A stretch of DNA of 64,000 bases, taken from the NCBI GenBank assembly GCA_937923605.1, contig CALDTY010000014.1:24796-88795 (forward strand). The letters run 5' to 3'. Below the pieces are notes generated by a model. The model did no database searches. It was not told where the DNA came from and saw nothing but the letters and a program-made list of their open reading frames with translations. Both the position numbers and the translations under genes were made by a program. This document shows, piece after piece, positions 1 to 64,000 of the stretch; the stretch's first letter is position 1; each line of letters begins with the position of its first letter. This DNA is from Candidatus Absconditabacterales bacterium. GTDB taxonomy: Bacteria; Patescibacteriota; Gracilibacteria; Absconditabacterales; Absconditicoccaceae.

Positions 1-45
1 TTGAGCTTTTTTTGATGCAATTCAGCGTTTATTAGTTCTAGCCAT
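1..45 (-). CDS. 5' end of an unidentified gene running off the left edge
   Basis: ATG at 45-43 opens a frame reading MARTNKRGIASKKAQ (one TGA read as Gly) that continues past position 1. The peptide is basic at the N-terminus. Too short to identify. Confidence 0.25.
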
Positions 46-146
46 GGGGTAAAATATAGGTAAATAATTAAATATATAGTAGATATTATATAAATAAACA
101 CAAGCAAGAGACGTTGATTATTATTTACATTTCATCAAAAATATAC

Positions 147-174
147 TTGACATGCCTTGCAACAATGCTATATT
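147..174 (+). promoter_or_regulatory. sigma70-like promoter (TTGACA, 16 nt spacer, TGcTATATT)
   Basis: TTGACA at 147-152 and an extended -10 TGCTATATT ending at 174. It lies about 180 nt upstream of the ArsR-family ORF. Confidence 0.45.
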
Positions 175-356
175 ATTGAAGAATATAAATCCAATGGTGT
201 ATATGTTAGCTATACATTGTGAATAGAACATTACTAGCAAGTATACATCTATAAGCCTTATAAACACACATCTATTCTGTGCATGGGCCTGAGGGAGTGA
301 GAGACCTTCAACTGGGTTACCAGTAAAACAAATTATTAACTAATCGGGCAGGAGAC

Positions 357-881: not shown

Positions 882-1118
882 ATGTTAAATGCACCTATCA
901 ATGCTTCAGAAATCAAGCTACATTCAGGTATCATTGCCTTACATCTAAAATCCAAGTCCTTGGGAGTTGTAACTACAGATGATATTCTAGTAAGTGATAC
1001 TACTCACAACAATATGCTTCAGCTGCAACAAGTTGGAGAAGTTGAAGTTTATAGTGAACCAATCTCTAGAGCTGATGCTGATAGAAAAATTAGACATTTA
1101 TATATGTTTAATTATTAG
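882..1118 (+). CDS. hypothetical protein (78 aa)
   Basis: Intact ORF ending in TAG, followed directly by a strong hairpin terminator. No recognisable motif and no TGA codon. Confidence 0.45.
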   Translation: MLNAPINASEIKLHSGIIALHLKSKSLGVVTTDDILVSDTTHNNMLQLQQVGEVEVYSEPISRADADRKIRHLYMFNY

Positions 1119-1137
1119 AGAATTTTTAACTAACAAG

Positions 1138-1167
1138 AAAGAGCTGTAGTTATCTACAGCTCTTTTT
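1138..1167. terminator. bidirectional rho-independent terminator
   Basis: Perfect hairpin AAAGAGCTGTAG-TTAT-CTACAGCTCTTT flanked by an A-run and a T-run, between two convergent genes. Confidence 0.8.
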
Positions 1168-1182
1168 GATTAAATAAATATT

Positions 1183-2406
1183 CTATTGAAGCCAATAAGT
1201 CCATAAATTAGAGCTTGATAGTTTAGATCATAGAGAATTCACCTGCTCAAGTGTCACGTTCTCGTAATCTTCCAAAATTTCTTTCATCGTTCTAATTTTG
1301 TTTTTAAATAGATACTGGTATCATACAAAATCAGCAAGCTGATCTGATGTTTCAATTCACATCTGAGTAGATCATCTTATACTTCATAAAGCTTTTTTAA
1401 ATTCATCTTCAGAAATATCTCATCAAGCTATAGTATCTATTTCTTCATATATAGCACTTTTTCATAGCTGTCGTTGTTCTTTATCCATTCAAGCATATAT
1501 AAGGAAATTTCAAGCTTGCTGATCTGCACTATGAGTAGAACCAATATAGTAGCATAATCATTTTTTTTCTCTTATACGTTGAAATAACCTAGAAGACATT
1601 CATCAACCTAGAATTTTTCACAGTATTTTTGCAGCAAATCTATTGTCGTCATTATTTGAAAATCAAGAAGCTGCAATTATAAGATGATTTTGCTGTGTTC
1701 ATTTTTCATAGAATGATTCATTTGTATTAGGCTTGAAATTAGGAATTTTTGGTGTTTCACTTGCTTTATGATCTGGTAATTCAATAAATAGATCTCATAT
1801 TTGCTGTATCAAAGATTCTTTATTTGGCAACGATCATGCTACAATAATAATCAAATTATCTTTTGTATACAAATTTTGCTTGTGAGAGAATAAATCTTCT
1901 TGAGTAAATGACTGAACATTCTGTTTTGGACCTAAAATTGGCCAACCAAAACTATTATCTCCATGGTATCGTTCATTTTGCTTGGTTCGTACTTGACGCT
2001 GAGGGTTATCTTCATACATAGCAATTTCTTGAATAACAACGCCTTTTTCTCTTTCCATTTCTTCTTTTGGAAATTGTGGAAACACCATCATGTCTCACAA
2101 AACATCTAAAGCCCTAGTTATGTAATCAGGAGCACATTTAACATAATATCAGGCATACTCACTTCAGGTAAACGCGTTAAATTCTCAACCAAAGCTATCT
2201 ACTTCATCGGCAACTTGTTTTGGAGTAGTATACTTCTTCCCTCATTTAAAAAACATATGCTCTAGAAAGTGAGATAAACCATTGGTTCACCTTTGTTCAT
2301 AGATACTTCAAGCCTTTACAAGTATTTGAATTGTTGTGCTATTTGAGTCTGGCAACTCAGCAAAGATAGTATCGATTCAAGCGATCTTAACGACTTCAAA
2401 ATTCAT
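1183..2406 (-). CDS. M16-family (insulinase/pitrilysin-like) zinc peptidase
   Basis: A single 407-aa frame under code 25. Motifs: HxxEH zinc site GLSHFLEHMFFKGG, the ORF-track fragment EREKGVVIQEI, and LGGGMSSRLFQRIREK in which two Gly are TGA (1600-1605). Stop is TAG. Confidence 0.92.
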
Positions 2407-2467
2407 AGTGTTTTGACATAAGTAAATGAATTGAATATAATTAAAATGCTTTATGTTTCACTAGGAA

Positions 2468-3205
2468 ATGGAGAAGAAAGAGTGAGATGAAATTGAACAA
2501 TTACTTAGCGAATATCAAAATCACCAACGCAAAGATCATACTTTGAGTATTTTACAAATGACAAATCCAGTTCATAGAAACACATTCAATGATGAATTTC
2601 TCTCATATCGACGCTGAGTACAAGAACATATTAGGGATAGAAAGTTAAGTATCTCAACGGGTTTATTATGAGCAATAAATTCTGGATTATGAAAAATTTG
2701 TGAACTACAAAATTTTAAACTCAATACGCCTAATTATAAATTAACAAGAGATTATTACATGATGCTTTTAAAGCTAAGTGATATACAATACAAGATTACT
2801 AGTGAATACTTAGACCGATTATTTATTGATCCAAATGATGTTCATGAAGATGAAATTTGATTAGATCAAGATAGGATTATACAATTAGGAAACATTAGGG
2901 GAGAGATGAAACATGATCCTCACTGATATATAAACGATATGTCACAATGAGGTGTAAGTTGACTACACTTACCACAAGCTCTAATACAATTGAGGAAACA
3001 GTATTGAGAAGAACTCTTTGTCAATAAACTTATTGAAAATAAAGAGCATATATATCCTTTGATAAACAGTTGATCAGCTGTATATGATTTGATGATTTTT
3101 AATTGACTACTTAGATATTTAGATCTAAGGGATATGCAAGTATATGAATTATTATGAAGTTACTTAAATTACTGGACACTTAAACATAGAGATAATTTGA
3201 TGTAG
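2468..3205 (+). CDS. hypothetical protein, possible HTH DNA-binding protein
   Basis: 245-aa frame that is open only with TGA = Gly. A segment RRGVQEHIRDRKLSISTGLLGAINSGLGKICEL loosely resembles an XRE-type HTH. Stop is TAG. Confidence 0.55.
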
Positions 3206-3209
3206 AAAA

Positions 3210-4346
3210 TTATAGCAACTCTCTTTTAGCTTTTGGATCAATATTTACCAGCACCTCGTATGGAATAGAAGAAATTCAAGTTGCAAATCCGGAAATAGAA
3301 TTATCTTTACCTATATCAGGGGAAATCACCTCTACTGTATCTCAAATCTTCACGTCATGTCACTTTGTATCTATAATAGATAAATTCATACAAATAGTGC
3401 CCAGAATTGGAAGATAGTCGTCTTTATAGGACACTTTCCACATATTAATTAATTTTCTATCTAATCATTCTGTGTATCAAAAAGGGATAGTTGCTACAGT
3501 CATATCTTTATCGGCTGTAAATTTTCATCAATAGCTAACAATATCTCATTTCTTGATTCTTTGCAGTGAAACAATTGTAGATTCCACAGTAAGTGAAGGC
3601 TTAAGATTAGTATACTTATCAAAGAATTCATCATTCAAAGATAGAGGAGAGTATCAATAAAATCAAATTCAAGATCTTCAGGCGTTAAAGTAAGGATCAT
3701 GTATCTTTGCGATTCAAGCAGAATTAGAAATATGTCTGTATTTCGTAGAGAATCAGTATTGTTCAATTAATCAATTCATTTCCTTAAATTTTTCAATTTG
3801 ATTATAACAAAAACTACTATCAACTTCATCAGCGTTTGCAAAATGAGACATCACTCATTCAAGTTGAATATTTGAATCTTTTAGTAGATCAAGAAATCAT
3901 CAAAGTTCATGCATCTGAATTCATTCACGATTCATTCATGTATTCAAAAAAAGATGAATTTTCCAAGACTTTCTTGTTTTGATAAGTGAAGCTAAAGTTG
4001 CAATATTGTATATACACACTGTGACCCACTTTGGATCAAGAAATTTATAGTTTTCTGGAAGAGTCTCTCAAATTAAAAGTGAAGGCTTCTTCGCCTTCTT
4101 CTTTATAATTTGATACTCAGGGATACTATCGACACAAATATAAGGCACATCAGTATTTCTTAATGCAATCGCTACCTGCTCAATTCAATGACCATATGCA
4201 TTTGATTTCAAAACTGGAAATATATCACTTCCTCATGATACTTCCTTTAGTATATCTAAATTTGATAAGAGACGATCATGATGAATTATGACTTTATTCA
4301 ATGAGACAAACGATTGACCTACTATTTTCCTTAAAAAAGGCAACAT
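3210..4346 (-). CDS. alr: alanine racemase
   Basis: 378-aa code-25 frame. Motifs: PLP-Lys site VLKSNAYGHGIEQVA, MSHFANADE, RSGIGFYGYSP, SYGGKFTA, ICMNLSIID. Confidence 0.93.
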
Positions 4347-4374
4347 TACGTAGTAAAGTTATATAAAAATAAAT

Positions 4375-5361
4375 TTATAATTTTTTTCTAGAAAAAGAGC
4401 TTGTTCTTTCAAGAATTCATGCATCTTTCATAACTATATTCTTCATTAAGATTTCTAATAATTGTTGAAAATTGTATCATGCAACTTTTGCTGCTTTTGG
4501 GAATAAACTAGTTGAGGTGAATCAAGGAATAGTATTAATTTCAAGTAGAATTGGTCACTTTGAAGTCAAAATTCAATCTATGCGTCACAGTTTTGTGCAT
4601 CATACTCATAAAAATGCCTTTAAACTAATTTCTTCAACTACTTTCCTTGTAGAATCATCAAATGGGGCAGGACAGATCTTGTTCATTTTTCAATTGTATT
4701 TATTTTCAAAATTTAATTCTTCTCATCATTCTACTTCTATCAGTATACTGGGGAGCACTTCTAATGATCAATCTTGCAATTCCAAAATTCATGTTGTAAA
4801 TTCCTTTCATTGTAAAAATTCTTCCAAAAGAATAACTTTTGACATTGAATCATAGGAATTTCTTGTTTTTATTAGATCTGACTTGTCTGATATAATAAAA
4901 ATTCACTTACTACTTCATTGATCCAGTTCCTTCCATACACAAGGGTATCATATTGTATCACTTATCTGCATATCTAGTTCATCGATAGAGTAGTCTCAAA
5001 TCTGAAAATATAGGTCATTAGCAACTGGCAATCCATAGGATCTCCAGACACATTTTGTCCGTCGTTTATTCATAGTTAAACTTAGAACATCACGTGATGT
5101 ACATTGATAAGTAACTCAGTACATATCCAGCAAACTAACGATTTGGCCATCTTCTCATCATACTCAGTGAATCATAACAAAGTAGAAATCAATTGTAGTA
5201 TCCTCAAGAGTTTGATACAAAGCATCTAGTTCATTTGGTATATCAAACATAGTAACTTCATATCATCAAGATTTTAGAGTATCTTCTATTGCATGAGCAG
5301 ACAAGAAAGATATATCTCTTTCTGAATTATCTCATCAAGTTATTATTCATACTTTTTTCAT
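4375..5361 (-). CDS. ddl: D-alanine--D-alanine ligase
   Basis: 328-aa code-25 frame: MKKVGIITGGDNSERDISFLSA..., IHGVGGEDGQIVSLLDMYGVTY..., ...LEINTIPGFTSTSLFPKAA. Lies directly upstream of alr on the same strand. Confidence 0.93.
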
Positions 5362-5396
5362 CTAAATATAGATAGATAAAGAAATATCACGGCATG

Positions 5397-6689
5397 CTAC
5401 TCTAGTAATTCCATTTCTGCTCACAATTTATTAAATTCATCAACAAAATTTGGAAAACGACGAAATAAAGGAGTAATTGCGTTTAAAGTACTAGTTCCAG
5501 GTGCAGCTATGCATGCCATTAACATTCCATAACTTGATTGAATAATATCTCAACACAACATGTCTGCCGGCTTTCGATCTGTAGGTCCAAAAGTAATTAT
5601 TCTATGAGGATCAGCCATAACTGTTCTAGCTTTCATTTTTGCAAGTTCTTGTACAAAGAAGAACTGAGAACTGTAATAGCTATTGGTTATCATAGCACTT
5701 CATTCACAATGTAATGCTAGTACAAGGAGTACAGGCATGAGATCCATAGGTAATAATGGTCGAGCTCAAGCACTTAACTCAAGTATATCTCCCTTAATTG
5801 TCTTAGAAATTTGTAAATTTGATTGAGATCAAATTGTAATTCTATCTAGATCATGATCTACATTAATATCAACTCATAATTTTTTCATAGCTTGTAGAGT
5901 CAAATCCATATGTGGAACAACTGCATTATTGATTATAACTTCTCACTTAGTCATTACTGTAGCTGTAATAATGCCTGCGACATCTAAATGATCAGATATT
6001 ACTGAATGCTCAACTCATGATAATTCTCTAACTCCTTCAATAATAAGTCTATTAGATCATATTCACTTAATATTAGCTCACATACTTGCTAGCATATTAC
6101 ATAAATCCTGAACATGTGGTTCACAAGCTGCATTCTGTATAATTGTCTCTCAATTTGCTTTAACAGCCATGAGAATTAAATTTTCAGTTGCAGTAACAGA
6201 AGGAAACCATTGTGTAATTGTAGTTCACTTTAATCAAGATGGACAAGATATCTCATATGCTCCGCTCTCGTTTGTATAATCGCATCACATACGAGTCATA
6301 TTCTCTATGAATGCATCCATAGGGCGGGTTCATAATTTACATCATTGTGGGAGTGGCATACTAACTTTTCCAAAGCGAGAAAGCAATGGTCAAGAATACA
6401 TAACTGATGCTTTCATCTTCTTGCTCAACTCTGGGTCTATAACAGTACTTGAAATTCAAGATGCATTGAGCAATAATGAATGTTCATTAGTCCAAGTAGC
6501 AGATCATCATAGTTGCTCAAAAATTTCTAGCATGTATTTAACATCACTTGTGGATGGAACATTATGTAAGATAACGTCCTTATCAGTAAGTACTGCAGCA
6601 GGTATCAACTTTATGATACTATTCTTATTTGGTACTGGAGTTGTAGTTCATCTTAAAGATTTTCACCCATGTATTATTAACTTCGACAT
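5397..6689 (-). CDS. murA: UDP-N-acetylglucosamine 1-carboxyvinyltransferase
   Basis: 430-aa code-25 frame: MSKLIIHGGKSLRGTTTPVPNKNS..., GCKLGTRPMD (catalytic Cys loop), FPSVTATENLILMAV, NAACEPHVQDL, YSSQFFFVQELAKM. Confidence 0.94.
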
Positions 6690-6848
6690 GATTATAATAA
6701 CGTAAAGAGTAATCAGTGTATCCTTGTAAATACTTTTTTCAATAAAAAAAAGGGGCTATGTCTGCAGTAAACTGTATGACAATAGTGCCCCCCAAGCAAA
6801 TGCTCATAATTAAGTGGAGAGAGCGCGTCTAAGCAACTCTCTGAGTTG

Positions 6849-7298
6849 TTAAATACATTCGCTTTCTCTTTGTAGTTTTCTTTTTTTGAGAATCCAAGGT
6901 GGTGTCCAAAGTGGTTTAATAATTGCTCTATAAAAGAGTAATTTTTTAAATTTTCCAACTTTTAGAATTTTTTGATTTGATCTTTTAGCTCTAAGATATT
7001 CTCCTCTAGCTTTAATTCTTAGTTCACGACTATCCTCAATAAGATAGAAGTCTTCATTATGCAGTATTGCACTCAATTTCATGAATAATGATGTATCCCA
7101 TTGATTAGGATTACCATTAACCAGTCTTCTTGAGTTCATAAGATCTTTCATTGTTAGCGTTAATGATTTTTGATACTCATTATTTCTAAACACATATAGA
7201 TCAAATGAATCTTTGAGTGGCATTCTAGCATATAAGAACACAAAGTCCGCTTCTAAAATTCTTTTAGTATTACCAAGATGTAATTCTGGATTCTCCAT
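6849..7298 (-). CDS. hypothetical protein (149 aa, TGA-free)
   Basis: Intact ORF ending in TAA, followed on the minus strand by a GGGGC...GCCCC stem and a T-run (about 6745-6795). No recognisable domain. All 4 Gly codons are GGN. Confidence 0.5.
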   Translation of the reverse strand: MENPELHLGNTKRILEADFVFLYARMPLKDSFDLYVFRNNEYQKSLTLTMKDLMNSRRLVNGNPNQWDTSLFMKLSAILHNEDFYLIEDSRELRIKARGEYLRAKRSNQKILKVGKFKKLLFYRAIIKPLWTPPWILKKRKLQRESECI

Positions 7299-7353
7299 AT
7301 ATAAGATTTGTTGTAATAAGTGTATATAGATATATAAAGCAATGTCAAATTCT

Positions 7354-8388
7354 TTAGAGACTTATTGGCTCTCGGTCAATCTTAAATCATCTAGAATTAA
7401 CTTTCAGTTTTGAGTAAGCAATTTCCATGAAATTTCTTAGTCAATCTCATTTGAGAATAATATGATATCTATACTTTCAGTACATTTTATAGATTGTAGG
7501 GGGGGTTGAATAAATTTCTAAATCAGGCATTTCATACTGTTCACGTAGATACAGCAATTCTTGATACAATTTATGAACAGTTGTATACACAGAAGATTCA
7601 ACTTCATGTTTATACATAAGCACACACATCTGGACAAAAGGAGGATACTGGTGTAATTTTCTTCTTTCCAATTCATTATTTTTCATAGTTTTAATATCCC
7701 CTTTACAAGCTGATATTATGCTTTGTTCTTGGGAATTGTACGATTGTAAAATAAAATCAGCTCATGAGTGAGCCTGGATACATCAATGCAGAAAGAGAAA
7801 ATTGTTGAATTTAGAACCATAATGAGGTGAGTGTAATCAGGCATCAGCTGATACGATGCATACTAAATCAGGTTGAAATCAAGTGATTCATGTTTCAAGC
7901 AATGACGTTCAAACTATAATATTCTGTTCACTCAAAGATGATAGACGTGATATTTTTTTATTACTATTAGCTAAAGTGGCATCTATCAATAATGGCTTAG
8001 AATCAGTTAGTTCCTCTACAAGATCAATAATCTGCTGATTTCAGACTCAAAATAACTTTATCTGTTGTGAGCTACAGTTAGTACAGATATCTTGTTTTGG
8101 ATAATGAGTCTTACAAATATGACAAATTCAAAATATCTGAGCGGAATCATCTTTGTGCCAAGCTATTGGAATATCACATTGAGTACAATTAGGAACATCT
8201 CAACAACTATAACACATTAATCATGTAGACCATCATTTCTTATTATTTATAATGAGAATTTTTTTTCATTGTTTTGATAGTTTCAAAATTCACTTAGTCA
8301 TCAATTCAGAAAAAGGTCTTGATACTTCACGAGTCATATCAACTAGAAATATATTTTGGTTCATTAATGTATATTGCACATAATTCAT
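7354..8388 (-). CDS. priA: primosomal protein N' (PriA), C-terminal half only
   Basis: 344-aa code-25 frame that starts at the LVDMTRE segment. It contains the Cys-rich zinc region (CYSCGDVPNCTQCDIPIAWHKDD...ICHICKTHYPKQDICTNCSS), GVGNQQIIDLVEE, IIVGTSLLETGITGF, and the C-terminal ELERRKLHQYPPFVQ. The N-terminal DNA-binding domain and the Walker A/B lobe are absent. An in-frame TAA lies just upstream. Confidence 0.8.
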
Positions 8389-8463
8389 ACTACAAGTATA
8401 TATTACTCTAAGGAAGAAACAACAAAAAAAGGAACCCACAAATGTAAGTCCCTTTTATAATAT

Positions 8464-8811
8464 TTAGAACGAATACTTTAACCAGTAAATAAAAGCAAAA
8501 AATAACATTACGGCAATAGCTCCAATTGTCATTAAATGATAATCTGAAACTTCATTTTCCTTTGTGTACCATAATGAAGTGCCTTCTACGTGTTGTGCTG
8601 TAGCGTAATTAAAAGCTACTTGAGTATCCACTAGCAAATAACTAACATCACTTGACTCTTTGAAATACAGAACGTGGTCATCTCTTTTATCACCTAGACT
8701 GACTGGTTTATAACTAGCTTTTAACTCATCTTTGCTAATTCTAAATACTTTTCCAGACATAGTCCGTCCAGTAAGTTGGGATTCAAATTTTTTTTTATCA
8801 ATTAGTTCCAT
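8464..8811 (-). CDS. hypothetical protein with C-terminal transmembrane anchor (115 aa, TGA-free)
   Basis: Intact ORF ending in TAA. C-terminal hydrophobic helix LMTIGAIAVMLFFAFIYWL. A terminator-like hairpin plus T-run follows on the minus strand at about 8414-8447. Confidence 0.55.
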   Translation of the reverse strand: MELIDKKKFESQLTGRTMSGKVFRISKDELKASYKPVSLGDKRDDHVLYFKESSDVSYLLVDTQVAFNYATAQHVEGTSLWYTKENEVSDYHLMTIGAIAVMLFFAFIYWLKYSF

Positions 8812-8827
8812 AATATTTGTTTTGTTT

Positions 8828-8920
8828 TTACTTAGTGATTAGTAGCAAAGTCGTTAACCCTGAAAGTAAAAATAGAATCAAGAGAAATATGATTTGCTTT
8901 GATGAATATTTTGTTTTCAT
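8828..8920 (-). CDS. possible small membrane peptide (30 aa)
   Basis: MKTKYSSKQIIFLLILFLLSGLTTLLLITK, ending in TAA, just upstream of the 115-aa ORF. Very short, so it may not be real. Confidence 0.25.
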   Translation of the reverse strand: MKTKYSSKQIIFLLILFLLSGLTTLLLITK

Positions 8921-8962: not shown

Positions 8963-9619
8963 TTATTTAAGATTTCTTCAGTATTTTTTGAGCCATACTT
9001 TTGCTTTACCAGTATCTTTACATATAGATTCACAATAGTTCCAGAAACTTTCAGAGTGATTCATATGTTTACGATGAGCTAATTCATGACAAATCACATA
9101 ATCCATTACCCGAAATGGGAGTTTGATTAATCTCCAATTTAATCAAATATTTCACTTAGAAGAACAGCTTCACCATTTAGTCTTCTGATCTCTAACAAAA
9201 CATTTGGAGTATGTAATTCAATGTTTTTTTGAAAGTTGTTCAAGACGAAGTGGGAGAAATGATTTTGCATATACTTTATATCGATGAGTTTGCTGAGTGA
9301 CATTATGTAGATCATGACCTCGCCGTATATATTTACGATTGTGGTCAATAGTATATTTAGTTCACTGTCATTTACGTAACATAGGTGAATATGCATCTCA
9401 ATGCAATAAAATTGTTCACTCTGGCAAAACAAGTAACTTTGATGCATCTTTAAAGTTCACAAGATGTTTTTGTATCCATGATTGTTTACTTTTTACAAAT
9501 GCAAGAATTTTATCTTGAGACATATGTTCAGGAGCAGTTGCCAGAACAGTATTCTCATCTACAACCTTAATACGTAAATGTTTCACTGCTTTACGAATTA
9601 TATTTAATTTATACTTCAT
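8963..9619 (-). CDS. DUF45/YgjP-like (M48-related) metal-dependent hydrolase
   Basis: One continuous code-25 frame: MKYKLNIIRKAVKHLRIKVVDENTVLATAP...[48 protein letters not shown] (HExxH). The ORF-track pieces 9416..9766 and 9139..9447 are artefacts of reading TGA as stop. An alternative upstream ATG exists at 9766. Confidence 0.85.
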
Positions 9620-9789
9620 AAATTTAGTATATATGTGTACACGTAAAATTAAAGTGTGAGTTCTTAATAATTCTATTGACTTATTATTAATATTATATAT
9701 AAGAAACGTTGCTGTCTTTAAAATGCGATGATAATATGACCAAAACTCATTCCAAAAATGGTACATATTAATTCATCAAAAATTAAGTA

Positions 9790-13237: not shown

Positions 13238-13272
13238 GAACCCTTTCACAAATGTGAAAGGGTTCTTTTTTT
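13238..13272 (+). terminator. rho-independent terminator
   Basis: GAACCCTTTCACA-AA-TGTGAAAGGGTTC followed by a run of 7 T. Confidence 0.85.
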
Positions 13273-50191: not shown

Positions 50192-50211
50192 CGTTTATCA
50201 TGACATAAAAA

Positions 50212-50703
50212 TTAATTTGGAGCGGTTGCTTGAATAGATACTGATAAAGTAATCTTTATTAGATAATAGAATCACGTAGCCACCAACAAACCAAGGAGCA
50301 CATAGAGTAATCTTTTCTTTACATTTGCAGCCTCTTCTGATTGCATAGGTGATAACACTAAGCGAAGTCCATTATAAATAATCAAAATCGTAGCAACAAC
50401 CATAGCTGAAAAAGATAATCGTTGCAAGTAAATTGCCACTTTCCTTCTTAAACTGTCTAAGGTGTTGGCAATAGCGAATTCCTCTCCATAAATTCCTCAT
50501 TCTTTAGTGACTTGATCAAGTTCAGACCAAATAATTTTGTCATTATTTCATTCATTCAATCTATTTACTACATGATCTAACACATCTTTTGGTTCGGCTT
50601 TATAGGAGTCTCGTCATTGTCAAAAAACCAATCACACTACTCAAAATGCTAGTAAATTGATTGTTACTAATCGAAATAGAACGTTTCTTATCTTGTTCAT
50701 CAT
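50212..50703 (-). CDS. TrbC/VirB2-like pilin candidate (163 aa)
   Basis: Signal/TM at the N-terminus (VLFRLVTINLLAFGVVGLVFG) and two C-terminal hydrophobic helices (AMVVATILIIYNGLRLVL, LLYVLLGLLVATGFYYLI), the usual VirB2 layout. Code-25 frame. Confidence 0.5.
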
Positions 50704-52934: not shown

Positions 52935-55900
52935 CTACTGAGGGACTTGATAGAAGAAATGAGGTGCCAATAACTCAGAGAGACATTGATTCTGCGTCGC
53001 ATGCTCTTCCATTACTTTCATTGCAACTGCACCAAGTGCAACTGACTCCATTCTTGTAAAAGCTCATCTGTTAGATAAAGCTTCAAGTTGATCTAATTTT
53101 TCGTCAATTACATCTTGTTCAACTCACTTAAAATCTCGAAGTGAAGCAATCAAATTAATGGCTGAGACTTCATCTACAATTCAATATGGATTCCTAACAA
53201 ATGAATCATATGTTGATTGATCAATAATTCATCATGCCAATAATCAATCGGCATGAGCCTCATGTTGTTGTGGACCTAAAACTTGTCCTTCTACAAGTCA
53301 TCATCGTCTAGCTAATAATTTTAGATATGCTTGATTAGTAATGTCTTCATTCTCCTGAAAATCTTGATTTTCGTTTCATCATCAATTATAAGAACAACTT
53401 GTTGACTGAAGGTACTCAAATGCATTTACCCTTTCTGGAGGTCGAGATGATAAATCAAATGAAGCAGATGAAGTGTCCGTATTTGGACATTCCATTCAAT
53501 CATCAGAATAACATTCCTTAGGCTCCTCTCGTCATTTCTCTGTATTTGGAACAGTAATAATTGTTACTAACTGGTCTCAAGAGCTAGGTGGTGATTGCAC
53601 TAATCAAGCCAAATTTCATGATGCGGGTCAATTAACTAAACCTGCAAGTCACTGTGTAGTTCAAGCATCAGTTGATCATACTCTTCATGAAATTCAACCT
53701 CATGTATCTCAAGAAGATCTACCACCTCAACTTTGTCATCAATCTCCTCATCAACCCCATTGAGTTGGAACAGGCTCCACAAAGATAGTTGGGTATACTC
53801 TAATAGGATAGCTACATGTTTCAGATCATCAAGTATCATTACTAATTGAAACTTTTATATAATCTGTGATCACCTCTAGAATATCAGGAATCAACCAAGA
53901 TGATCATCCTCATCCAGGATATATAATTTCATCAACTGTTATATCTCAAGGCATGATAACTTGAATTTGTTCTGTAGTTCCTCAAATGAATTCTCATGGA
54001 GAGTATACAATTGCTGGCACTCAACACGATGCAGAAATGATTTGTTTTACTTCACAACTAACAATTTCTTGAGTAAGTGTGTTTTCACATTCCCAGCTCC
54101 AACCAGTAGGAGTCTTTTGGAATACGTTCATTTCCATATCATCATATCACGTACTAGGTTCGTCACAATAAGCTGGCTTAAAGGTAGAAGTTTCTCGACC
54201 ATTAAAGAAGTTTGATACAACTCAATTTTCAGCTATCCATCCACAAACAGTGTCTTCAGTTTCTTGTTCTGCTTCACATTCTACTGCTCAACAATTCCAA
54301 GTTACTATTGTTCAAGGATCTGGAAATGGAGCAAAAATATCTGGGTCTAATCCATTGTCACAGTAATCCTCAGAATCAGTTCACTCATATCATGTTTCAT
54401 CTATAGTATAAACTCTAGCATTATCTCCACACTCCTCTGGTTGTCATACTACAGTAATTACCTGCTCACATTCTGCAGTAGATCACTTTAGATCAGAAAC
54501 AGTTCGCACAAATGTAATTTCATCTCAAATATTATATCCATCATCTCAATTTGTCTTATCAGAATCGTAATAAATCGCTTCATAGAAATTTCAATTTCAA
54601 TTACTGTCCGGTCATTCAATGGTAGATCATGCATCATCAATTAACGCAACATCCTCTATGATCAGACCAGGCTCTGCAAAATTTCATCGATTAACTGTAA
54701 ATGTACTTCATAAATCAATTGTCATATCAGTATCGTTAATTCAACCATAATTAACTCAAGCATCTCAACATTCCACAGGCTCTTGTAATACTTGAATTGT
54801 ACAATAATCTCATCTCTGCATACCAGGACATGTCCAAGCATATTCAGAATTTTCTTGATCATAGGTGACAACTGGATTAGCGAACTCATCGTCACAGAAT
54901 CACTCTAATCATCAAGCAAAAACTAATTGTATAGCCTGTTCTGTATAACTAATTGTAGTTCCAGCAGCAGGACCACACGGATCTTCAGGATCTTCATCTT
55001 CTCATAATTCTATACCATCTGTCAAATCAGGATCTCAGACAATCAATGGCTTAGGGCAAGTCATTGTAATTTCACTTCATCATATCATTGCTGTCATCTC
55101 TATCTTAATCACATACACACCTTCTTCATCATATGTAACCAAAGTAGCATCATCATTTGTAATTCAATTTTGAATAACAGCTGCATTCCAATCAACAGCT
55201 CACAATGAATTTCATGAAGCATCAAATGATATATCAACAGCAGTTCCAACTGGCACTAATCACTCTGTATCAACTCCATTATCTTTAAAAACTAGATTTA
55301 AATCATTACACAATGGAGTTGGGAAAATCTCCAAACTACATTCTTCTAATTCAGCATCTGCATATGTTCCTCATGGATTAACTGGACATTCCCAAGTAGT
55401 GATAAGTGGGAATACCGTACTAGCAAGTATTTCAAAATTTCAAGCTCTAGGTCAAGGTTGAGGTGCATCAATATTCTCATCAAATCTACACCAAGGTTGT
55501 CACTCTGGATAATTTCTTTTACTAAACAATGCTTGATCTGTTTCATTAAGTATACCACATACTCATGGCAAGTATCGCTGACAATGATTTTCTGTATTAC
55601 ACTCTCATTCATTGACTCTATCCCAATACCTATCTCCTTCTCATAGTTCATCAGGATTTTGGTCTTCTGGATCTGATCAACTGTCCTTACAATAAATTAC
55701 ATCTGGACCAAAATTGTCCGGATCATTATTGTAAGCTTCAGGATCATCTTCATCAACTATACATTCATATTCTGGGTATTTACAATTATCTAGACAATTT
55801 GGATCTTTATCTTGCTCACATTCCTCATCATCTGGAGTATCCTCCTCTCAATCTTGTCATGCTTTTTGAACTTCTCAATCTCAGCATCGAATTTTAGTAA

Positions 55901-58568
55901 GCTGACATGTATCTACAACTTCGTTATCGTTAATTCATAAACAGTTCCACTCTCGAGTATTAGAACCTGGATCAAAAGAAATTATTGGGTCTCCTGATCA
56001 ATCCTCCTCTACTAATCATTGTAAACAAGAAGCCATTGCAGGATTATCTTCCAGATCAAAATCTTCATCATATATTGTTTGTGGAGATGGACATTCTCAT
56101 GGCTCACTTTCTTCAGACACTTCAAATTCTTCTTCACATTCTAAAGTATCTCCCTCATCACCTTCGCCTTCATAAGAAAAAGTAACAGTATACTCTCATC
56201 ATGATCACGTGCTATATTGTTGTGTATATGATCAAGCAAGAGGGTTAATAATTGTTCATCAGTCTCCCCAAACCAATAATGTTCATGAAATAGCAAGAGT
56301 TACAGTAAATTCTTCATTAATTCATCAAGTTAAAGGGGTTAAGGTGAAGATATCAGCACAGGAAGTTTGTGGATATTCACAGATAGAAGTATCCTGATAA
56401 GTAGCACTTGGATTGAAATTTAGCGCTAATGGATCTATACATCCTTCTATCTCATCACATGTTCCTGGTAATGGATCTAATGCTGGGTAACTACATATCT
56501 CATTTATACATTTTTTGTCTTCACATTCTGTATCTGTTCCATCTGGACAATCTGCATCTGTTACGCAATCTGGATACTCACATCCTACATTAACATTTGC
56601 TGCAGGATCAAAATTTGTTGCATTTGGATCCGTACATCCTTCTATCTCTGCACAATGAGAATTACCTGGGTATGTATCGCCAACACAACATTCTATACTA
56701 CTATCACATATACAATTTGTATTGTTTAAATATGTATCTCATGGGCAACAAAGAATTGTAGCATCGCATATACAATTCGTGTTTCATGGGTAACTATCTC
56801 CATCACAACATGTGATTGAACTATCACATATACAATTTGTGTTTCATGGATACGTGTCTCCATCACAACACGTAATTGCACTATCACATATACAATTTGT
56901 ATTTCATGGATATGTGTCTCCATTACAACATTCTACACTACTGTCACATATTTCTGGACAATTTGGATTTCACGGATAACTATTACCATCACAGCATTCA
57001 ATTGTTGGGTTACATGTTATACTACAATTTGTATTTGGTGGATTTGTTTCTCCATTACAACATTCCAATGCTGGATCACACACACAATTTGTATTGTTTA
57101 AATATGTATCTCATGGGCAACACGTCGTTGATTGATCACATATACAATTTTGATTAGCTGGGTAAACATCTCCATCGCAACACGTAATTGCACTATCACA
57201 TATACAATTTGTGTTTCATGGGTACGTGTCTCATGGACAACAAACTGAAGCACTATCGCAACATGAAGGATCATTCGTCTCATCTGGAACATGATCACAC
57301 ACTCATGATTGACAAATGTCGTCTGTACAAATGTTTCCATCATTAAAACAACTGCTTCAATCATCTAAGTCAGTAAACTCACATCAATTAGTTGGATCAC
57401 ATGAGCCTGTAGTACATTCATTATTATCATCACACACAACAGGATCAGAGTAATCACAAACTCAATTATCACATACATTTTCAGTACATAGATTACTATC
57501 ATCACAAACAACACTGGTAAGTGTAAATTCTAACGAAGTAGCAGCACACGAATTTCAATCATCTAATGTGGCTGTGTATGTCCCTGGTCATAAGTTTCAA
57601 AATACTCAAGTTGAATTTGTAATAGTTCCTACTGTAAAAGAATACGGTTGAGTTCATCAAGATGCTGATAAGACTATAGATCCACCAACTCAAGCACAAT
57701 TAGGATTGTTAGATGATCATGTGAGTTCCAGTTCTGTAGGCTCTTCGATCTGTGAAAACTCTGTAAAATCGCAAGTTGCATCATTATATCCTATTGGATG
57801 TATGGTAAGAATATATCAACTTCAAACGATATTTGGTTCCAGTCACGTAACTGATGAAGTTGTAGGTCAGTGTGATCGTTGATAACTAAAATCACCTAAG
57901 TCGAAGGCAGAAGTTTCTACTAAAGTAAGAGAACCATCATCATCGCCAAAGCAAGTTATATCATTTCAATTTAAAGCAAACTCAGTGTTTATGTCATAAT
58001 GAGCAGGATGATCTGTTATGACCTGATTTGGACATAAACATAAACAGTCACCTGGAGTATTTGGATCTTCAACATATGGCATATCTATTGCTCATCAATC
58101 AAATGTAGCACAGGTATCTCACACAAGTGAACCAGGAATATTATCACAAGAAATTGGTGGTTCACAAGAGCAAGTACCATTTGAAGAAGAAACTAATAAT
58201 GGTGCCGCATTAGCTGAAATAAAATCAAATCATCAACCACTAGATTGTTCTGTACAAGAAAATGGGTAATCATCATAGTATATTGGTTTCCAGAGGGGGA
58301 CAGCTCAGGAATCATCTCTAATGTAATCAACATCCTGAAAATCACAAATATTCACATTACTGTTTTCACAGATAATTAATGCTGATGTAAGCGCTCACAG
58401 ATATGCACTTGATCAAAAATCACAAGTCCCGCATGGTATAGGTAGATCTACTTCAACTCAATTATCAATACAGGTTCACGAAGCAAATACACTTCAACTC
58501 GTAAAAAAAAGCAGAGAAATGATAGAAAGTAATCGAGTCTTATTCCGTCATTTACGAGAAAATAACAT
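52935..58568 (-). CDS. giant secreted Cys-rich surface protein (1877 aa) with SprB-like repeats, 20-aa Cys repeat array, Gly-rich linker and C-terminal tail
   Basis: I translated all 5634 nt in one code-25 frame and found no TAA or TAG. Signal peptide MLFSRKGRNKTRLLSIISLLFFTSGSVFA. SprB-like units (ITCFGDDDGSLTLV..., NCAGVGGSIVLSASGGTQPYSFTVG...GTYTATLDDGNSC). Ten copies of CC(D/P/N)GDTYPGNTNCICDS. Linker WGGGGDGGQSGGGRSSGDTGGGISG. Stop is TAG at 52935-52937. Confidence 0.85.
56641..57240. repeat. tandem 60-bp repeat, about 10 copies (coding, Cys-rich 20-aa unit)
   Basis: Near-identical 60-bp units, for example plus-strand CTATCACATATACAATTTGT... at 56701, 56821 and 56881. Each encodes CCxGDTYPGNTNCICDSxIx on the minus strand. 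Confidence 0.9.
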
Positions 58569-58683: not shown

Positions 58684-58711
58684 TAAAAGAAAATCCCTAA
58701 ATAATTAGGGA
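58684..58711 (-). terminator. rho-independent terminator (minus strand) after the upstream giant gene
   Basis: TCCCTAA-loop-TTAGGGA hairpin followed on the minus strand by TTTTCTTTT, about 35 nt after the TAA at 58745-58747. Confidence 0.7.
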
Positions 58712-58744
58712 CTTCTTTTATAATAGTTATATAGATATCTTATA

Positions 58745-61700
58745 TTACTGAATGGATTGTAGATTATCTTCTCGATAAGATTGATTTTCAGTTGCAATAT
58801 TTCACTTTGACGCATCTTCATCATATGAGTTTTGAGCGTGGAGAATAGCTTCTTGAGTACCTACTTGCTCTGCATGTCATATATATGCAAGTGGAGTATG
58901 TAAGACAGAAGGTTTAACTTCAAGAAGATAATCATACATAAATTCCATAAGATAAATTGCGTCTGATCTTAGGAATTCTTGACCTTCATATACTTCAATA
59001 GCTTGGTATAATTCAAGAATTTTCTGATTATCTATTTGCTCAACATGATGATCAACAACAGTTACAAGCAACATAAGCGCAGTCCTCATGTCGACAGGGC
59101 TGTCTAGCTCTGTCCTAGTTAGATTAAATTCTCAATATCAAGTATCAAATTCATCTTCTAGCGCCTCTAGATATACTTCTCATCGATGTCTTCAACTTTC
59201 TTCATACTCTATCGCTGTTTCATGAAAGTCATTACGATCTAACATAAGAGTTCTGGCGAAAAGCTTGAATGTTTCTGCTAGAGTAGTTTCTCTATTAGGT
59301 TGGAAGTATTTACTAGTATCTGATGTTCAGTTTGTTAAACAAATTTTTTCGTTCAACTTATTTACTGTATCTTCAAGATCTCATCATATATCTACAAAGT
59401 TATTACTTTGGTATTCATGCCCATCCTTATACTTACATCAAGAATCAATAACCTCTCTCATGACCTCTAGCTCTTCAGTAGTCTTTCAAGTATCTACGTC
59501 AACTACTGTCAATAACTCTAAGACTTGTATAGCTTGCATAGATTCTGCTGCCACTTGATGTGTCTGGGAAATTGCTTGCGCTTGATAATCTGGATCCAAA
59601 TGATTTGGAATTCAATCATCATCATGATCATTATTTCATAAGAAGTATTGATACTCTTCAGTGTTACCTGCTCTTGATCACAAAGCTCATCAATTTCATT
59701 TATTTTCATCATCAACAATCAATGTTGGGTATATTCTAATTGGATAGCTACATAATTCAGATCAACCTGTATTATTACTAATATGAACCCTAATATAATC
59801 TGTAATTACTTCGTATGTTTCAGGTACACGCCATGATGAATTAGATGTTCCTCATGGATAAATAATCTCATCAATAGTTACATCTCATAGCATACTTACA
59901 TCTATTTGTTCTATAGTTCCACCAATAAAATCTCATGGAGAGTAGACAATAGCTGGTAATCCACAAGAAGCAGATATTACTTGTTTCACTTCACAAGTCT
60001 GCACTTCTTCTGTAAGCTTGTTTTCACACTCCCAACTCCATCAAGTAGAAGTCTTTTGAAATGAATTCATATTCATGTCATCATAACCTGTACTTGGTTC
60101 ATCACAATATGCAGGTTTATATGTAGGTGTATCCCATCCGTTGAAGAAATTCGATACTATTCAATTTTGTGCTATCCATCCACATACTGTATCTTCTGTT
60201 TCTCTATATGCTTCACATTCTACATCACCACATGACCAAGTCTCAGTAGATCAAGGATTTGGAAATGATGCAACATTACTAAGACCATCACCAGAAGTAC
60301 AATAGTCTTGTTCAGCTATTCCATCATATGCATCTTCTTGCACTGTAAACACTCTTGCATTATCTCAACATTCATCAGGTTGAGCTACAACTTCCAGTAC
60401 TTGAGTACAATTTGCTGATGATCACAATGTATCTTCAACAGTCCATTCTACGACTATCTGATCTTCTGATTCATATACTCATGATTGAATTCGCTCCGTA
60501 TGACCATTTGATCATATGTTAGCATTTCATGCAATGGATTGTACATTCTTTCAAGAGACAATATATCCTGGCTCAGGAATCCAATTAACAGAGAATGTAC
60601 TTCATAAATCTATCGTCATTTCTGGTTCATTAATTCATCCATAACTAATTCATGCATCGTCACATTCAACAGTTTCCTGTGTAACGTTTAATGTACAATA
60701 GTCTCATCTTTCCATGTTTGGACATGTCCAAGCGTATTCTAGGTTCTCTTGGTCAAATGTAATTACTGGATCAAAGTCCTTTTCACAGAATCACTCTAAT
60801 CATCATGCAAAAACAAGTTGTATAGCCTGTTCTGTATAATTAATTGTCATCCCGTCAACTGCTCAGCAATGATCTCATTCATTCTCATCTTCTCAAAGCT
60901 CTATAACATCAGTTATGTCTGGATCTCAGACAATAAGAGGCTTAGGACAAATCATAGTAATTTCATCAGATCAAATAGTTGCCGTCATCTCAATCTTAAC
61001 AACATATACTCATTCATCTTCATAGGTAACTAGAGATGAATTATTAGTAGTCACTCAATTTTGAATAACATCAGCTGTCCAATCTACTACACCTAATGAA
61101 GTACCTGATTCATCAAAAGAAATATCAACAGTTGTTCATTCTGGTACGACTCAATTTGTAAGGAGATTATTTTCTTTGAATTCAAGATTCAGATCGTCAC
61201 ATACTGGAGTTGGATAAATATCTAGTTCACATTCTACCAGTTCCGTATCTGCATATGTTCCTCAAGGATTCTCTGGGCATTCCCATGTCGTTTTAAGTGG
61301 GAAAGTAGTACTTGCTTGTATTTGGAAATTTCATGCTCAAGCTCTTGATATAGGTGCATCTATATTCTCATCATGCATACACCAAGGTTGACCTTCAGGA
61401 TATTGTCTTTTACTAAACAGTGCCTGATCAGTCATGTGTAGTATTCCACATGCTCCAGGGACATACCACTGACAACGGTTATTAGGTTCACATCATCATT
61501 CCTCTACTTTATCTCGATATCTATCAGTTTCAGTCAAATTCTCTTGATCTCATGGATCATCTGTTGTGTCTTTACAATACACAACATCAGGCTCAAAATT
61601 TAATGGATTATTATTGTATGGATCTGGATCATTATCATCAATAATACACTCAAAAAGCTCAGCTTTACATTCTGAATTACAGTTAGCGTCTACTGCAGGC

Positions 61701-64000
61701 TCACATTCTTCGTCATCTGAAGTATTTAATAATCCATCTTCTCCTTCTTCTTGAACTTCTTCATCACCACATCGAATCTTAGTTACTCAACATCAAACTG
61801 AATTTGTTGGATCTTCTTCGTCAATACATCCCCAAGATCGTGAAGTAACTTCTCAACTAGGAGTATCGTCATCAGCATCAAAAGAATCTTCATCAAACTC
61901 TGTTCCTTCTGGACATAGATGAGGTCCAGGAATAATAGAATATGATTCGTTATACACAGTAATATTATCATAATCTTCTAAACATTCTAATCATACAAAA
62001 CTTTCTGGACATGGCGGTATTGTAAATTCTCATTCAGCAGCACACTGTCATTCAGATCAAGGAACTACGTCAAATGTATAAGTTTCTCATCATTCAAAAA
62101 TAGCTATTGTAAACTCATCTGCATTTGTTGATGATCAGTCTCAACCGTAAACAGGATTTCAATTACCATCATATATTGTTATTTCTGCTCATCATTGAAC
62201 TCCTCCGAGATCTATAGTCACAGACCCTTCTGGATCTCAAGTTGAACAATCATCCCCTCCTACAATTGGTGTTGGTAATTTCAGTGCATCACATCAAGAA
62301 GAAGTCGTCTCACATTCTACTTCAAGTGTTACTTCTCATTCACATCCATTATCATCCTGGATTGCGTATGTATAAAAGCCGTCTGACAATCACTCGACAA
62401 TATCACCTTCAGAATACTCAATACCATCAACAATGATTTGCGCATCTCCAATTGCCCCAATAACTTCTCAAAACTCTATTGATCCATTGGCATCACAGGT
62501 TCAATTTTCTCAGGTCGCACTAGTAATAACATTTTGACTTAAAATCATGTTTTCTGCATACCCACATTCAGTAAGACATACTGGCAATATAAATTGCTCA
62601 GATATTCATGGAGAGACACACTCTTGACCATTTTCAGTATAGGTTACTGTAGGAATAAGTGTTCCTGGAGTCACAAACGATTGATTCGCTCATACTAGTG
62701 AAGGATCATTTCGTTCTACAACTACATCAGTTTGATCATTAGTAACTGATCGTGATACATTCATAGTTCATGGAATATATTGCCCATCTGCATCACAGGT
62801 TATTTGAGTAGATGAAACATCAATATCTAAAGTACAGTCACAATTATTATTCATCAATACATCAGCCTGCGCGCTATTACTTTCACATCAATTTTCATCT
62901 GTAACAGTCACAGTGTATGTATCAGTTATGGTAGCCTCAAAACTTTCTCATCATCACACTGAATCTCCAGCACTATTTTCTCGAGCATATGTCCATCAAG
63001 CTTGTCCATCATTTACCTGTAAGGATGCACTATCTTCTCCACAAATCACTGTTACGGAGTTTGTGTTTAAAGTAATAGATGGTTCTTCAGGTCAGGTAAT
63101 CTCTACACTCACTTCGTCGTTACACTCTACAGTATCATTATTTTCATCAGTTACACTTACTGTTGCTGTATATGTTGTGGTTCCGTTTGGCAAATTAGAT
63201 AAAGCAAATGAAGTTGAACCATTCGCAAGACTCGAAGAATCTCACGAGCTTAATGTAACGGTAGATCAGTCTTCTGCATTTCATCAACTTACAAGTAAAG
63301 TTACAGATCCAAGATCTTCTGAACAAGTATTATTATTAGTTATTTCTCCATCAATAGTGATTGCAAAACCATCACATGCTTCACAATCTTGTGCTGATGG
63401 TGCAGTAAGATCATAATTAGCAGATATTTCACATGAAGGATCAGCTCCAAGAACTTCTATAATTATTTCTCATCATCAAACATCTCAGTCTATAATAATT
63501 GGGAAATCAGAATAAGAATAACTCTGTCAAATTTGACTTCCATCTACTGAGAGTATATATAATGTTTCATCATCTCAACTTACTGGTGGAGTAAATGATA
63601 CTTCAATTTCTCATTTAGTTTCTCCACAAGCTAAAACAGCTTCATCAAGCACCACTTCAAATCAAGAACAATCAAATGGTTCAGAACATTCTGCAGGCAT
63701 ATCAAGCTCTACATTAATATCCATTAGACACTCAAGTCACATCTGTGATCAATAGGTTAGGTTTACTAAGTAATAATCTCAATCTACTTCTTCCAATACA
63801 GTCGCTGTTTCAAATGGATCGTGTCATCGCTCAAAACTATCTACTCCATCAAGTGAACCAAGAGTTACTGTTCATCATCATGCAGTACCATCATCAAGAC
63901 AAAAGAGTCCCATTCATTCTAAAGTCGTTCCAGGCATTGCAGGAATATTTACATCAATCGATGCATCACCTAAGCATCCCATTTCATCAGTAGCAGTGAT
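58745..64000 (-). CDS. giant secreted surface protein, paralog of 52935..58568 (more than 1751 aa, 5' end beyond the window)
   Basis: I translated all 5256 nt to the window edge in one code-25 frame with no TAA or TAG. The N-terminal part has SprB-like ...VTDENGC / ATDEMGC / QDDNGC units. The middle section of about 600 aa is collinear with the neighbouring gene (TCEVKQVISASCGLPAIVYSPGDFIGG versus SCEVKQIISASCGVPAIVYSPGEFIGG). It has a TSP3-like DHDDDGIPNHLDPD and a different C-terminal tail. Stop is TAA. Confidence 0.85.

Follow-up and report, generated by a model that had tools for sequence, protein, structure and literature searches.

UGA as glycine, and CGA and probably CGG as tryptophan, in a stretch of DNA assigned to Absconditabacteria, and a standard-code gene in a conserved slot

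The stretch of contig CALDTY010000014.1 analysed here (positions 24,796 to 88,795; its full 64,000 nt, with a GC content of 31.9%, are referred to as the window) can be assigned with high confidence to an Absconditabacteria (SR1) chromosome in which UGA encodes glycine, CGA and probably CGG encode tryptophan and only UAA and UAG are stops, with a standard-code exception at 9790-13212, the gene g10. That UGA is read as glycine has been known since 2013, and the reading of CGA and CGG as tryptophan was predicted in 2021; the window is a further case of both. A standard-code gene in a conserved slot of such a genome is undescribed in the literature searched, and it is the part of the analysis most worth following. 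A preliminary description of this DNA, made from the sequence by itself, had held that the whole window is written in genetic code 25. This was right about UGA as glycine and about TAA and TAG as stops, but CGA, and probably CGG, is read as tryptophan, so that the other codons are not all standard, and the recoding extends to nearly all genes but not to the gene at 9790-13212, which lacks any TGA.

UGA as a glycine codon

When stop-to-stop open reading frames (ORFs) of at least 300 aa are counted, there is 1 with the standard code and there are 25 with TGA as sense, and no other stop codon has this effect, as 1 ORF remains when TAG or TAA is read as sense in place of TGA. The ORFs delimited by TAA and TAG alone number 51 and give a coding density of 91.6% without large overlaps; they end in TAA in 42 cases and in TAG in 9, where the exclusive use of these two stops is partly by construction, as the ends were defined as TAA or TAG. 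In the alignments to E. coli, the window proteins are also covered nearly to their ends and have no long tails, in agreement with termination at UAA and UAG only. The gene re-calling that had been proposed as a check thereby supports the earlier observation that nearly all conserved genes are uninterrupted only when TGA is sense. Translations with Gly at TGA give Pfam matches to the housekeeping genes that would be expected. Among the in-frame codons TGA occurs 1072 times (5.5%), GGN 476 times (2.4%) and TGG 144 times (0.74%), and glycine reaches a normal 7.9% of residues only when TGA is counted with it. A contig from a separate assembly of run ERR9287627 in Logan (ERR9287627_81324, 23,212 nt) has 0 mismatches to the window.

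The amino acid was identified by aligning 13 window genes to their orthologues in E. coli K-12 with TGA masked as X against alignment bias. In this alignment, 139 of 256 masked TGA positions (54%) face Gly and none face Trp, with Ala, gaps, Asp and Ser following, as compared with 65% Gly for GGN, 29% Trp for TGG and a background of 8.1% Gly; among single genes, TGA stands opposite an E. coli Gly at 11/20 positions in alr, 18/26 in ddlB, 15/23 in murA and 18/29 in trxB. In GatA, 28-31 of 39 TGA positions (72-79%) correspond to Gly in homologues that are either standard-coded or correctly annotated Absconditabacteria proteins, and none to Trp. A codon-by-codon comparison of 57 gene pairs, in which window genes were set against their orthologues in eight loci of related genomes, placed 766 window TGA positions opposite GGN in 436 cases and opposite TGA in 211 (647/766 together). 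The tabulation of the residues that face TGA, which had been suggested as a test, thus came out dominated by Gly, with no Trp.

Because the masked TGA columns face Gly and never Trp, UGA is a glycine codon, neither a stop nor a Trp codon, and code 4, in which UGA is Trp as in Mycoplasma, is refuted, retaining practically no probability. Code 4 is like the window in that UGA is sense, and it recovers ORF lengths equally well, so that gene callers falling back to table 4 obtain full-length ORFs; in addition, the translations of this contig stored in a large public protein collection carry W. However, it would give 6.2% Trp and 2.4% Gly among the residues, the standard-code GatA homologues have Trp at none of the TGA columns, and TGA falls on the textbook glycines of the motifs GSGPAG, GxxGxGKS and GGSSGGS. 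All the motifs that the preliminary description had quoted for TGA on conserved glycines were found where it had placed them (lower-case g denotes TGA): FgSgW at 13735-13749 and NNggg at 13579-13593 in the Fe/Mn superoxide dismutase (SOD), gSgPAg at 14037-14054, LGggMSSRLF at 1582-1611 on the minus strand with the two TGA codons at 1600-1605, gGSSggSAAS at 48205-48234, gQTGTgKS at 30705-30728 and gDgDgID at 43771-43791. Its count of SOD glycines also holds, with 14 TGA and 0 GGN. TGA is the majority Gly codon, at 73% overall and 78% in housekeeping genes (39/45 in GatA, 14/14 in SOD), while its share in the relatives' loci is 36-53%, the window having the highest share among the relatives sampled.

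The consequences for annotation can be seen in public data. In the protein collection mentioned above, the SOD is stored in its W version and not in its G version, and the entries for GatA and TrxB from this contig are 92% and 91% identical to the code-25 translation; because the mismatches are exactly the TGA codons, with W in place of G, these entries are code-4 translations. About two thirds of the top 120 GatA matches contain 1.3-8.7% Trp, with the extra Trp on the TGA columns of the window gene, and these high-Trp relatives, along with many SR1 proteins in the collection, have apparently been mistranslated in the same way. Table 11 breaks the genes of this contig apart, as had been said of any standard-code annotation, and code 4 is equally invalid: annotation with table 11, 4 or 25 is wrong, and table 4 turns 1072 Gly into Trp.

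CGA, and probably CGG, as tryptophan codons

The window contains 94 CGA, 7 CGG and 144 TGG codons, so that CGA would make up about 38% of Trp codons, and Trp rises from 0.74% to 1.26% of codons once CGA and CGG are counted with it. In the E. coli alignment, 12 CGA codons can be placed, opposite F in 4 cases, W in 3, L in 2 and H, D and A in one each; none of the 12 has Arg opposite it. By comparison, the Arg codons face E. coli Arg at 5/5 positions for CGC, 37/73 for AGA, 8/13 for AGG and 5/14 for CGT. The three CGA codons opposite E. coli Trp are at SOD aa184 (13915-13917), AlaRS aa108 and PheS aa277, which contradicts the claim that Trp is always TGG at conserved W positions; the SOD codon is the invariant Trp of the FWNVVNW motif. 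In GatA, the CGA at aa456 stands opposite L, F, W or Y in 44 standard-code homologues.

In the 57 orthologue pairs, window CGA (n=34) faces TGG 16 times, CGA 16 times, CGG once and a Tyr codon once in the relatives; window CGG (n=8) faces CGA in all 8 cases; window TGG (n=98) faces TGG 49 times, CGA 32 times, CGG 5 times and other codons 12 times; and window CGT, CGC, AGA and AGG (n=431) face the same four Arg codons 344 times and CGA or CGG not once. Since CGA and CGG trade places with TGG but with none of CGT, CGC, AGA and AGG, CGA and probably CGG are synonyms of TGG, not of the Arg codons. Plain NCBI table 25, in which UGA is Gly and all other codons, including CGA and CGG as Arg, are standard, is therefore very unlikely to describe this genome. 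Its reading of UGA is confirmed and the lone E. coli-alignable CGG stands opposite Arg; on the other side are the 0/12 CGA codons opposite Arg, the 42 CGA/CGG positions in orthologue pairs with no genuine Arg codon opposite any of them, the exchange between CGA and TGG in both directions (16/34, and 37/98 for TGG opposite CGA or CGG) and the CGA on the invariant Trp of the SOD. At 101 codons of the window, table 25 would give the wrong residue, so that about 100 Trp become false Arg.

Both reassignments have precedents. Table 25 was reportedly described for SR1 and Gracilibacteria by Campbell and colleagues and by Rinke and colleagues, in both cases in 2013. The reading of UGA as Gly has been documented in SR1 and Gracilibacteria (PMC8629427, PMC8080830), and UGA as Gly together with a change of CGA and CGG from Arg to Trp was predicted for Absconditabacteria with Codetta (Shulgina and Eddy, 2021, eLife, PMC8629427). 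The window shares with table 25 the Gly reading of UGA and UAA and UAG as the only stops, and with the table 25 group a low GC content, a genome of the epibiont type found in the candidate phyla radiation (CPR), giant surface proteins and genes like those of type IV secretion systems (T4SSs). It differs in that CGA, and probably CGG, is not Arg, and in that TGA, an additional Gly codon in table 25, is the majority codon here (73-78%). With the Absconditabacteria code of Shulgina and Eddy, the window has in common the reassignment of UGA and CGA, probably that of CGG, and also depressed CGN, AGA as the main Arg codon and more CGA than CGG. CGA occurs at 48 per 10,000 codons in the window as opposed to <37 per 10,000 in all species of that study, which counted aligned Pfam domains only (PMC8629427), and the window would be a more advanced stage of CGA reassignment. 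It provides independent comparative support for a change from Arg to Trp that has hitherto rested on one computational screen.

As to the lineage, the closest relatives of GatA that carry a name (49-56% identity) come from Candidatus Absconditabacteria, Absconditicoccus praedator, Vampirococcus lugosii and SR1 metagenome-assembled genomes, and no Gracilibacteria were found among the best 120 GatA matches. The names of these relatives and the CGA/CGG change place the window in Absconditabacteria (SR1) rather than Gracilibacteria, as judged from sequence; the preliminary assignment to a recoded clade of Gracilibacteria or Absconditabacteria is thereby narrowed to the latter. From published work on the clade, UGA would be read by a tRNA-Gly with anticodon UCA, release factor 2 would have been lost, and CGA and CGG would be read by a tRNA with anticodon UCG and Trp identity.

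Several points weigh against this picture of lineage and code. The lineage is based on the names attached to GatA matches and on a codon pattern, not on marker-gene phylogeny. A tRNA search that covered the window and nine relatives' loci (~130 kb) found no such gene, so that the decoding machinery is unseen, and no release-factor family appears among the Pfam matches of 48 window ORFs. The evidence for CGG is thinner than that for CGA, as the sole E. coli-alignable CGG (DdlB aa101) faces Arg; the case for this codon rests on its exchange with CGA and TGG among relatives, and the window has only 7. A search of Rfam gave no match.

The standard-code gene between ygjP and sod

The exception to the recoding, g10, is located at 9790-13212 on the plus strand, encodes 1140 aa (Pfam PF18962, PF00404, PF02494) and is the only long ORF that the standard code leaves in the window. 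Of its 76 Gly codons none is TGA, compared with 78% TGA in housekeeping genes (binomial P = 4e-50), and it has 0 CGA or CGG; its Trp codons are 13/13 TGG, its Arg codons 17/17 AGR and its stop is TAA. Thus g10 is entirely in standard code. Its Pfam domains are HYR, dockerin and the C-terminal sorting domain of type IX secretion system (T9SS) cargo, the last (PF18962, Por_Secre_tail) scoring 39 bits against a cut-off of 27 at residues 1076-1133, and its hydrophobic N-terminus, MKNIICFFFLFINLQFTFA, is a putative signal peptide, as read from the sequence. The best homologues are T9SS type A cargo proteins of Saprospiraceae and other Bacteroidota, with at most 36% identity over ~60% of the length, and no homologue above 36% identity was found among 5.8 billion proteins. 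The N-terminal ~260 aa lie outside the best Bacteroidota alignments. The excess of Trp by which mistranslated recoded genomes can be told is absent from all 75 g10 homologues. As in T9SS type A cargo proteins, HYR-like repeats, a dockerin motif (DLxELRKLILG) and the sorting domain occur together, possibly with a signal peptide; unlike these Bacteroidota proteins, g10 belongs to a CPR genome, which would not be expected to have a T9SS, its promoter is of the resident type and its N-terminal part lies beyond the best Bacteroidota alignments. No PorK/L/M/N, SprA or PorU/V was found among the Pfam matches of the window proteins, while at the Saprospiraceae homologue locus PorP/SprF and SprB adjoin the homologue gene.

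As the standard code leaves no other long ORF in the window, g10 might be taken for an assembly chimera or bin contamination, but this is exceedingly improbable. Recoded genes lie 23 bp (by ORF) or ~170 bp upstream and 153 bp downstream of g10, the separate assembly of ERR9287627 has identical junctions, and the same arrangement is present in four other samples and assemblies. The g10 protein is on record in NCBI, ENA and Logan, on a contig of 90.5 kb, and the sample accessions are mentioned in no paper of the literature searched.

These other loci were recovered from other samples with TrxB relatives as anchors, and in each of them the slot lies between the divergently oriented ygjP and sod-trxB. 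In locus L013 it holds a gene of 923 aa with dockerin and sorting domains (6145-8916; 0 TGA among 50 Gly codons), in L018 a gene of 1636 aa with HYR, dockerin and sorting domains (1037-5947; 0/97, P = 5e-31), in L102 two tandem sorting-domain genes (3-521 and 805-1989; 0/11 and 0/30) and in L118 a gene of at least 939 aa that reaches the contig end and is collinear with g10 residues 1-926 (2338-5154; 0/54), while in L014 and L017 the slot is empty. Together with g10 (0/76), the six slot genes of five genomes have 0 TGA among 318 Gly codons, compared with 44-78% TGA among the Gly codons of the other genes of those five genomes. Unlike g10, the slot genes of L013 and L018 contain CGA (6 and 9), and in Bacteroidota homologues 8 of 9 CGA columns resemble Arg; BLOSUM(R) minus BLOSUM(W) averages +2.64 at slot CGA columns, as compared with +2.11 for AGA and -3.60 for TGG, and one slot CGA falls on a dockerin Arg that is R in 65/66 homologues. 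From the lack of TGA and the Arg-like CGA columns, the slot genes are written in standard code inside genomes that read CGA as Trp.

The sequences around the slot genes have features of the resident genome. Upstream of g10, at 9671-9725 on the plus strand, there is a promoter-like block, TTCTATTGACTTATT...TGTCTTTAAAAT, of the resident TATTGACw type, whose 55 nt match the corresponding sequence in front of the slot gene in L013 at ~80% identity (z = 9.1 versus shuffles). Slot flanks were compared by pairwise tests against shuffled sequence, since four-way MAFFT alignments were too noisy. Several further copies of TATTGACw occur in the window and L013, many close to the start of a gene. The Bacteroidota promoter motif TAnnTTTG was not found upstream of any slot gene, which speaks against a host-type promoter for these genes; the Saprospiraceae homologue has one. 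After g10, at 13238-13272 on the plus strand, a hairpin resembling an intrinsic terminator, GAACCCTTTCAC-AAAT-GTGAAAGGGTTC-TTTTTTT, was read from the sequence, and in L013 and L018 the slot gene likewise has such a hairpin behind it. A Shine-Dalgarno-like motif is present in the 25 nt upstream of the start in 2 of 47 resident genes, which makes a comparison with the slot gene in this respect uninformative; from this scarcity and the AT-rich sequence that precedes start codons, translation initiation in the window seems largely independent of Shine-Dalgarno motifs.

Two explanations of the standard-code slot gene, long residence and repeated import, are nearly level in probability. The first of these, given close to an even chance, is an old acquisition from Bacteroidota followed by vertical inheritance and fast evolution, with selection keeping the standard code, that is, without TGA, without CGA or CGG for Trp and with CGA still Arg. 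It is favoured by the occupation of the slot between ygjP and sod in five genomes, by the lack of TGA in all six genes beside resident shares of 0.44-0.78 and by the 8/9 Arg-like CGA columns. Synonymous sites are saturated between slot genomes, yet the slot GC content at third codon positions (GC3) follows the flank GC3 of each resident genome (r = 0.96, p = 0.01, n=5). For g10 by itself, host-like codon usage had to be dropped as proof of long residence, as the Saprospiraceae homologue locus, with 33.5% GC and a GC3 of ~0.2, matches the window equally well; the five-genome correlation restores the argument from codon usage only in part. Long residence is also consistent with the collinearity of g10 and the L118 gene along the full length and with the weak match of the L013 gene to the N-terminal part of g10 (22% identity, E 1e-8), where the Bacteroidota alignments stop short. 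In a neighbour-joining tree, g10 and the L013 gene are sisters with 91% bootstrap support and three slot genes group together with 61%, although this apparent monophyly could come from long-branch attraction; the GC3 correlation has n=5. Further points in its favour are the resident-type promoter block common to the window and L013, the lack of any homologue above 36% identity in the protein collection and the lack of a close standard-code relative in 79 standard-code metagenome loci; among IMG/VR viral contigs, only weak dockerin-level matches were found. On the other hand, there is no known reason for a gene expressed in a recoded cell to stay standard-coded, and the resident-type promoters imply expression in just such a cell, where CGA would become Trp. 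The slot is also empty in two loci and holds tandem or short genes in L102, and the L013 and L118 slot genes are 35% identical while the YgjP proteins are 76% identical. If long residence under selection is true, something reading the standard code matters for the function of the slot gene, and this would be the first known case of a recoded bacterium that maintains one of its chromosomal genes in the code of another organism.

The second explanation, which is possible but tentative and falls short of an even chance, is repeated recent replacement or acquisition by horizontal gene transfer (HGT) from standard-code organisms, with copies too young to have gained TGA or to have lost CGA as Arg. 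The donors could be low-GC Bacteroidota such as Saprospiraceae, perhaps as a host or prey from which these epibionts take up DNA, or a standard-coded phage or mobile element. A standard-code signature is what a young foreign gene would show, and a family of this kind with a T9SS sorting domain is typical of Bacteroidota; compared with Bacteroidota proteins, g10 and the L018 gene reach higher scores than when compared with each other, and the GC3 of the Saprospiraceae locus matches the window. The variation of the slot in presence, gene number and gene size, together with the 35% identity of the L013 and L118 slot genes despite the similarity of their YgjP neighbours, also suggests turnover. 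In Vampirococcus, uptake of host DNA via ComEC and 126 HGT genes have been described (PMC8080830), and standard-coded phages have been predicted to infect Absconditabacteria and Gracilibacteria (Liu et al., 2023, mBio, PMC10746230). Repeated import nevertheless requires that one family was inserted at least five times into a single intergenic site downstream of a resident-type promoter, and no close donor was found in the 5.8 billion proteins, 80 metagenome loci or the viral contigs. It also has to accommodate a GC3 that tracks each resident genome and an N-terminal domain that is common to g10, L118 and, weakly, L013 and is missed by the best Bacteroidota alignments. If ordinary HGT is the cause, the code barrier is leaky inbound, and low-GC Bacteroidota with a T9SS are named as the likely host or prey; in the literature searched, no relevant link of Absconditabacteria with Saprospiraceae was found.

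A phage origin of the slot gene was considered and set aside, given that IMG/VR returned dockerin-level matches only. The standard-coded phages described by Liu et al. (PMC10746230) are nevertheless the nearest precedent: like the slot gene, they avoid in-frame TGA, use the other stops and are readable in both codes. The slot gene differs in being one gene of the chromosome, at a position where synteny is conserved and without phage genes as neighbours.

A more specific form of long residence, and an improbable one, is that the slot gene is resident, vertically inherited and kept standard-coded for translation by a standard-code system, which in the boldest version would be the ribosomes of a Bacteroidota host. 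In that version, the host Sec and T9SS machinery could export the dockerin/HYR protein to the host surface as a docking site for the epibiont, a bacterial analogue of a pathogen installing its own receptor, and this would explain the retained T9SS sorting signal. T4SS-like genes are encoded in the same window as g10. Delivery of the gene or its transcript to a host is pure conjecture, and the resident-type promoter and the lack of a Bacteroidota motif count against it.

On the left flank of the slot, the ygjP-like metallopeptidase gene (8963-9766, minus strand, Pfam PF01863) has an ORF of 267 aa, compared with ~218 aa in the five relatives that are 50-58% identical and lie beside the slot (L013, L014, L017, L018 and L118). 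From this difference in length, the true start is probably near 9619, and the first 49 codons of the ORF would belong to the promoter region common with the slot gene. On the right flank are the Fe/Mn superoxide dismutase gene (13366-13971, plus strand, Pfam), with CGA for Trp184, and the thioredoxin reductase gene (14004-14975, plus strand, Pfam), with 29 TGA and 8 GGN.

Other genes of the window

Several of the other genes contributed to the codon assignments above, and unless a family is given they were identified with Pfam. On the minus strand, an M16 peptidase gene (1183-2406, Pfam PF00675 and PF05193) has 26 TGA and carries the LGggMSSRLF motif, and there is a cell-wall cluster (3210-6689, 73 TGA in total) that consists of the genes for alanine racemase (3210-4346), D-Ala-D-Ala ligase (4375-5361) and MurA (5397-6689). 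Also on the minus strand are the genes for alanyl-tRNA synthetase (33342-35018; 558 aa, 39 TGA, CGA at aa108), ribosomal proteins S1 (39917-41017) and S15 (41049-41309), both with TGA for Gly, inorganic pyrophosphatase (43441-43992, gDgDgID) and the GatA amidase (47227-48648; 39 of 45 Gly as TGA, CGA at aa456), while the gene for the alpha subunit of phenylalanyl-tRNA synthetase is on the plus strand (51834-52868; CGA at aa277). The AlaRS consists of the catalytic and tRNA-recognition part, with nothing like the editing or C-Ala domains after it, and PriA is represented by a 344-aa protein of the C-terminal type only (7354-8388, minus strand); both look like reduced versions of the usual enzymes, judging by their sequences.

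The T4SS-like genes lie at 28046-31946 and 49280-50703. They comprise a gene for a coupling protein of the VirD4/TraG type (29517-31946, minus strand, Pfam) with the Walker A motif gQTGTgKS and genes for two pilin-like membrane proteins of the VirB2/TrbC type (49280-50703, minus strand, Pfam PF18895 and PF04956), and are accompanied by a tyrosine recombinase gene (28046-29068, plus strand, Pfam), an HTH_17 protein and a DUF134 protein. The pair of recombinase and coupling protein is kept in L013, L017 and L018, which suggests a settled component of the chromosome and not a mobile element that arrived recently.

Three giant genes on the minus strand encode surface-type proteins. The first, of 1467 aa and without a Pfam match (15258-19661), has 119 TGA interspersed with 16 GGN, while the other two are Cys-rich, one of 1877 aa (52935-58568) with TGA as 67% of Gly codons and one of >1751 aa that leaves the window (58745-64000) with 60%. 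These two are paralogous and share Cys repeats of the form CCxGDTYPGNTNC, and their TGA share of 60-67% is significantly below that of housekeeping genes. A check for mosaic segments found no TGA-free block inside the giant genes, TGA and GGN being interspersed.

A few smaller ORFs have unusual codon usage. An ArsR-family regulator at 357-728 on the plus strand has 0 TGA among 5 Gly codons and, as one of the two genes of the window with a Shine-Dalgarno-like motif, GGCAGGAGAC before its ATG, and is possibly another foreign standard-code gene. A 208-aa membrane protein without a family match (20200-20826, plus strand) has 1 TGA compared with 10 GGN (P = 3e-6), and two small ORFs on the minus strand, likewise without a family match (6849-7298 and 8464-8811), have 0/4 and 0/5 TGA; these three may be further standard-code genes, although the small ones are perhaps no genes at all. 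Between gatA and the pilin gene, an ORF that consists mostly of (SSGSSL)n repeats (48606-49247, plus strand) overlaps the start of gatA and is probably a low-complexity repeat region rather than a gene.

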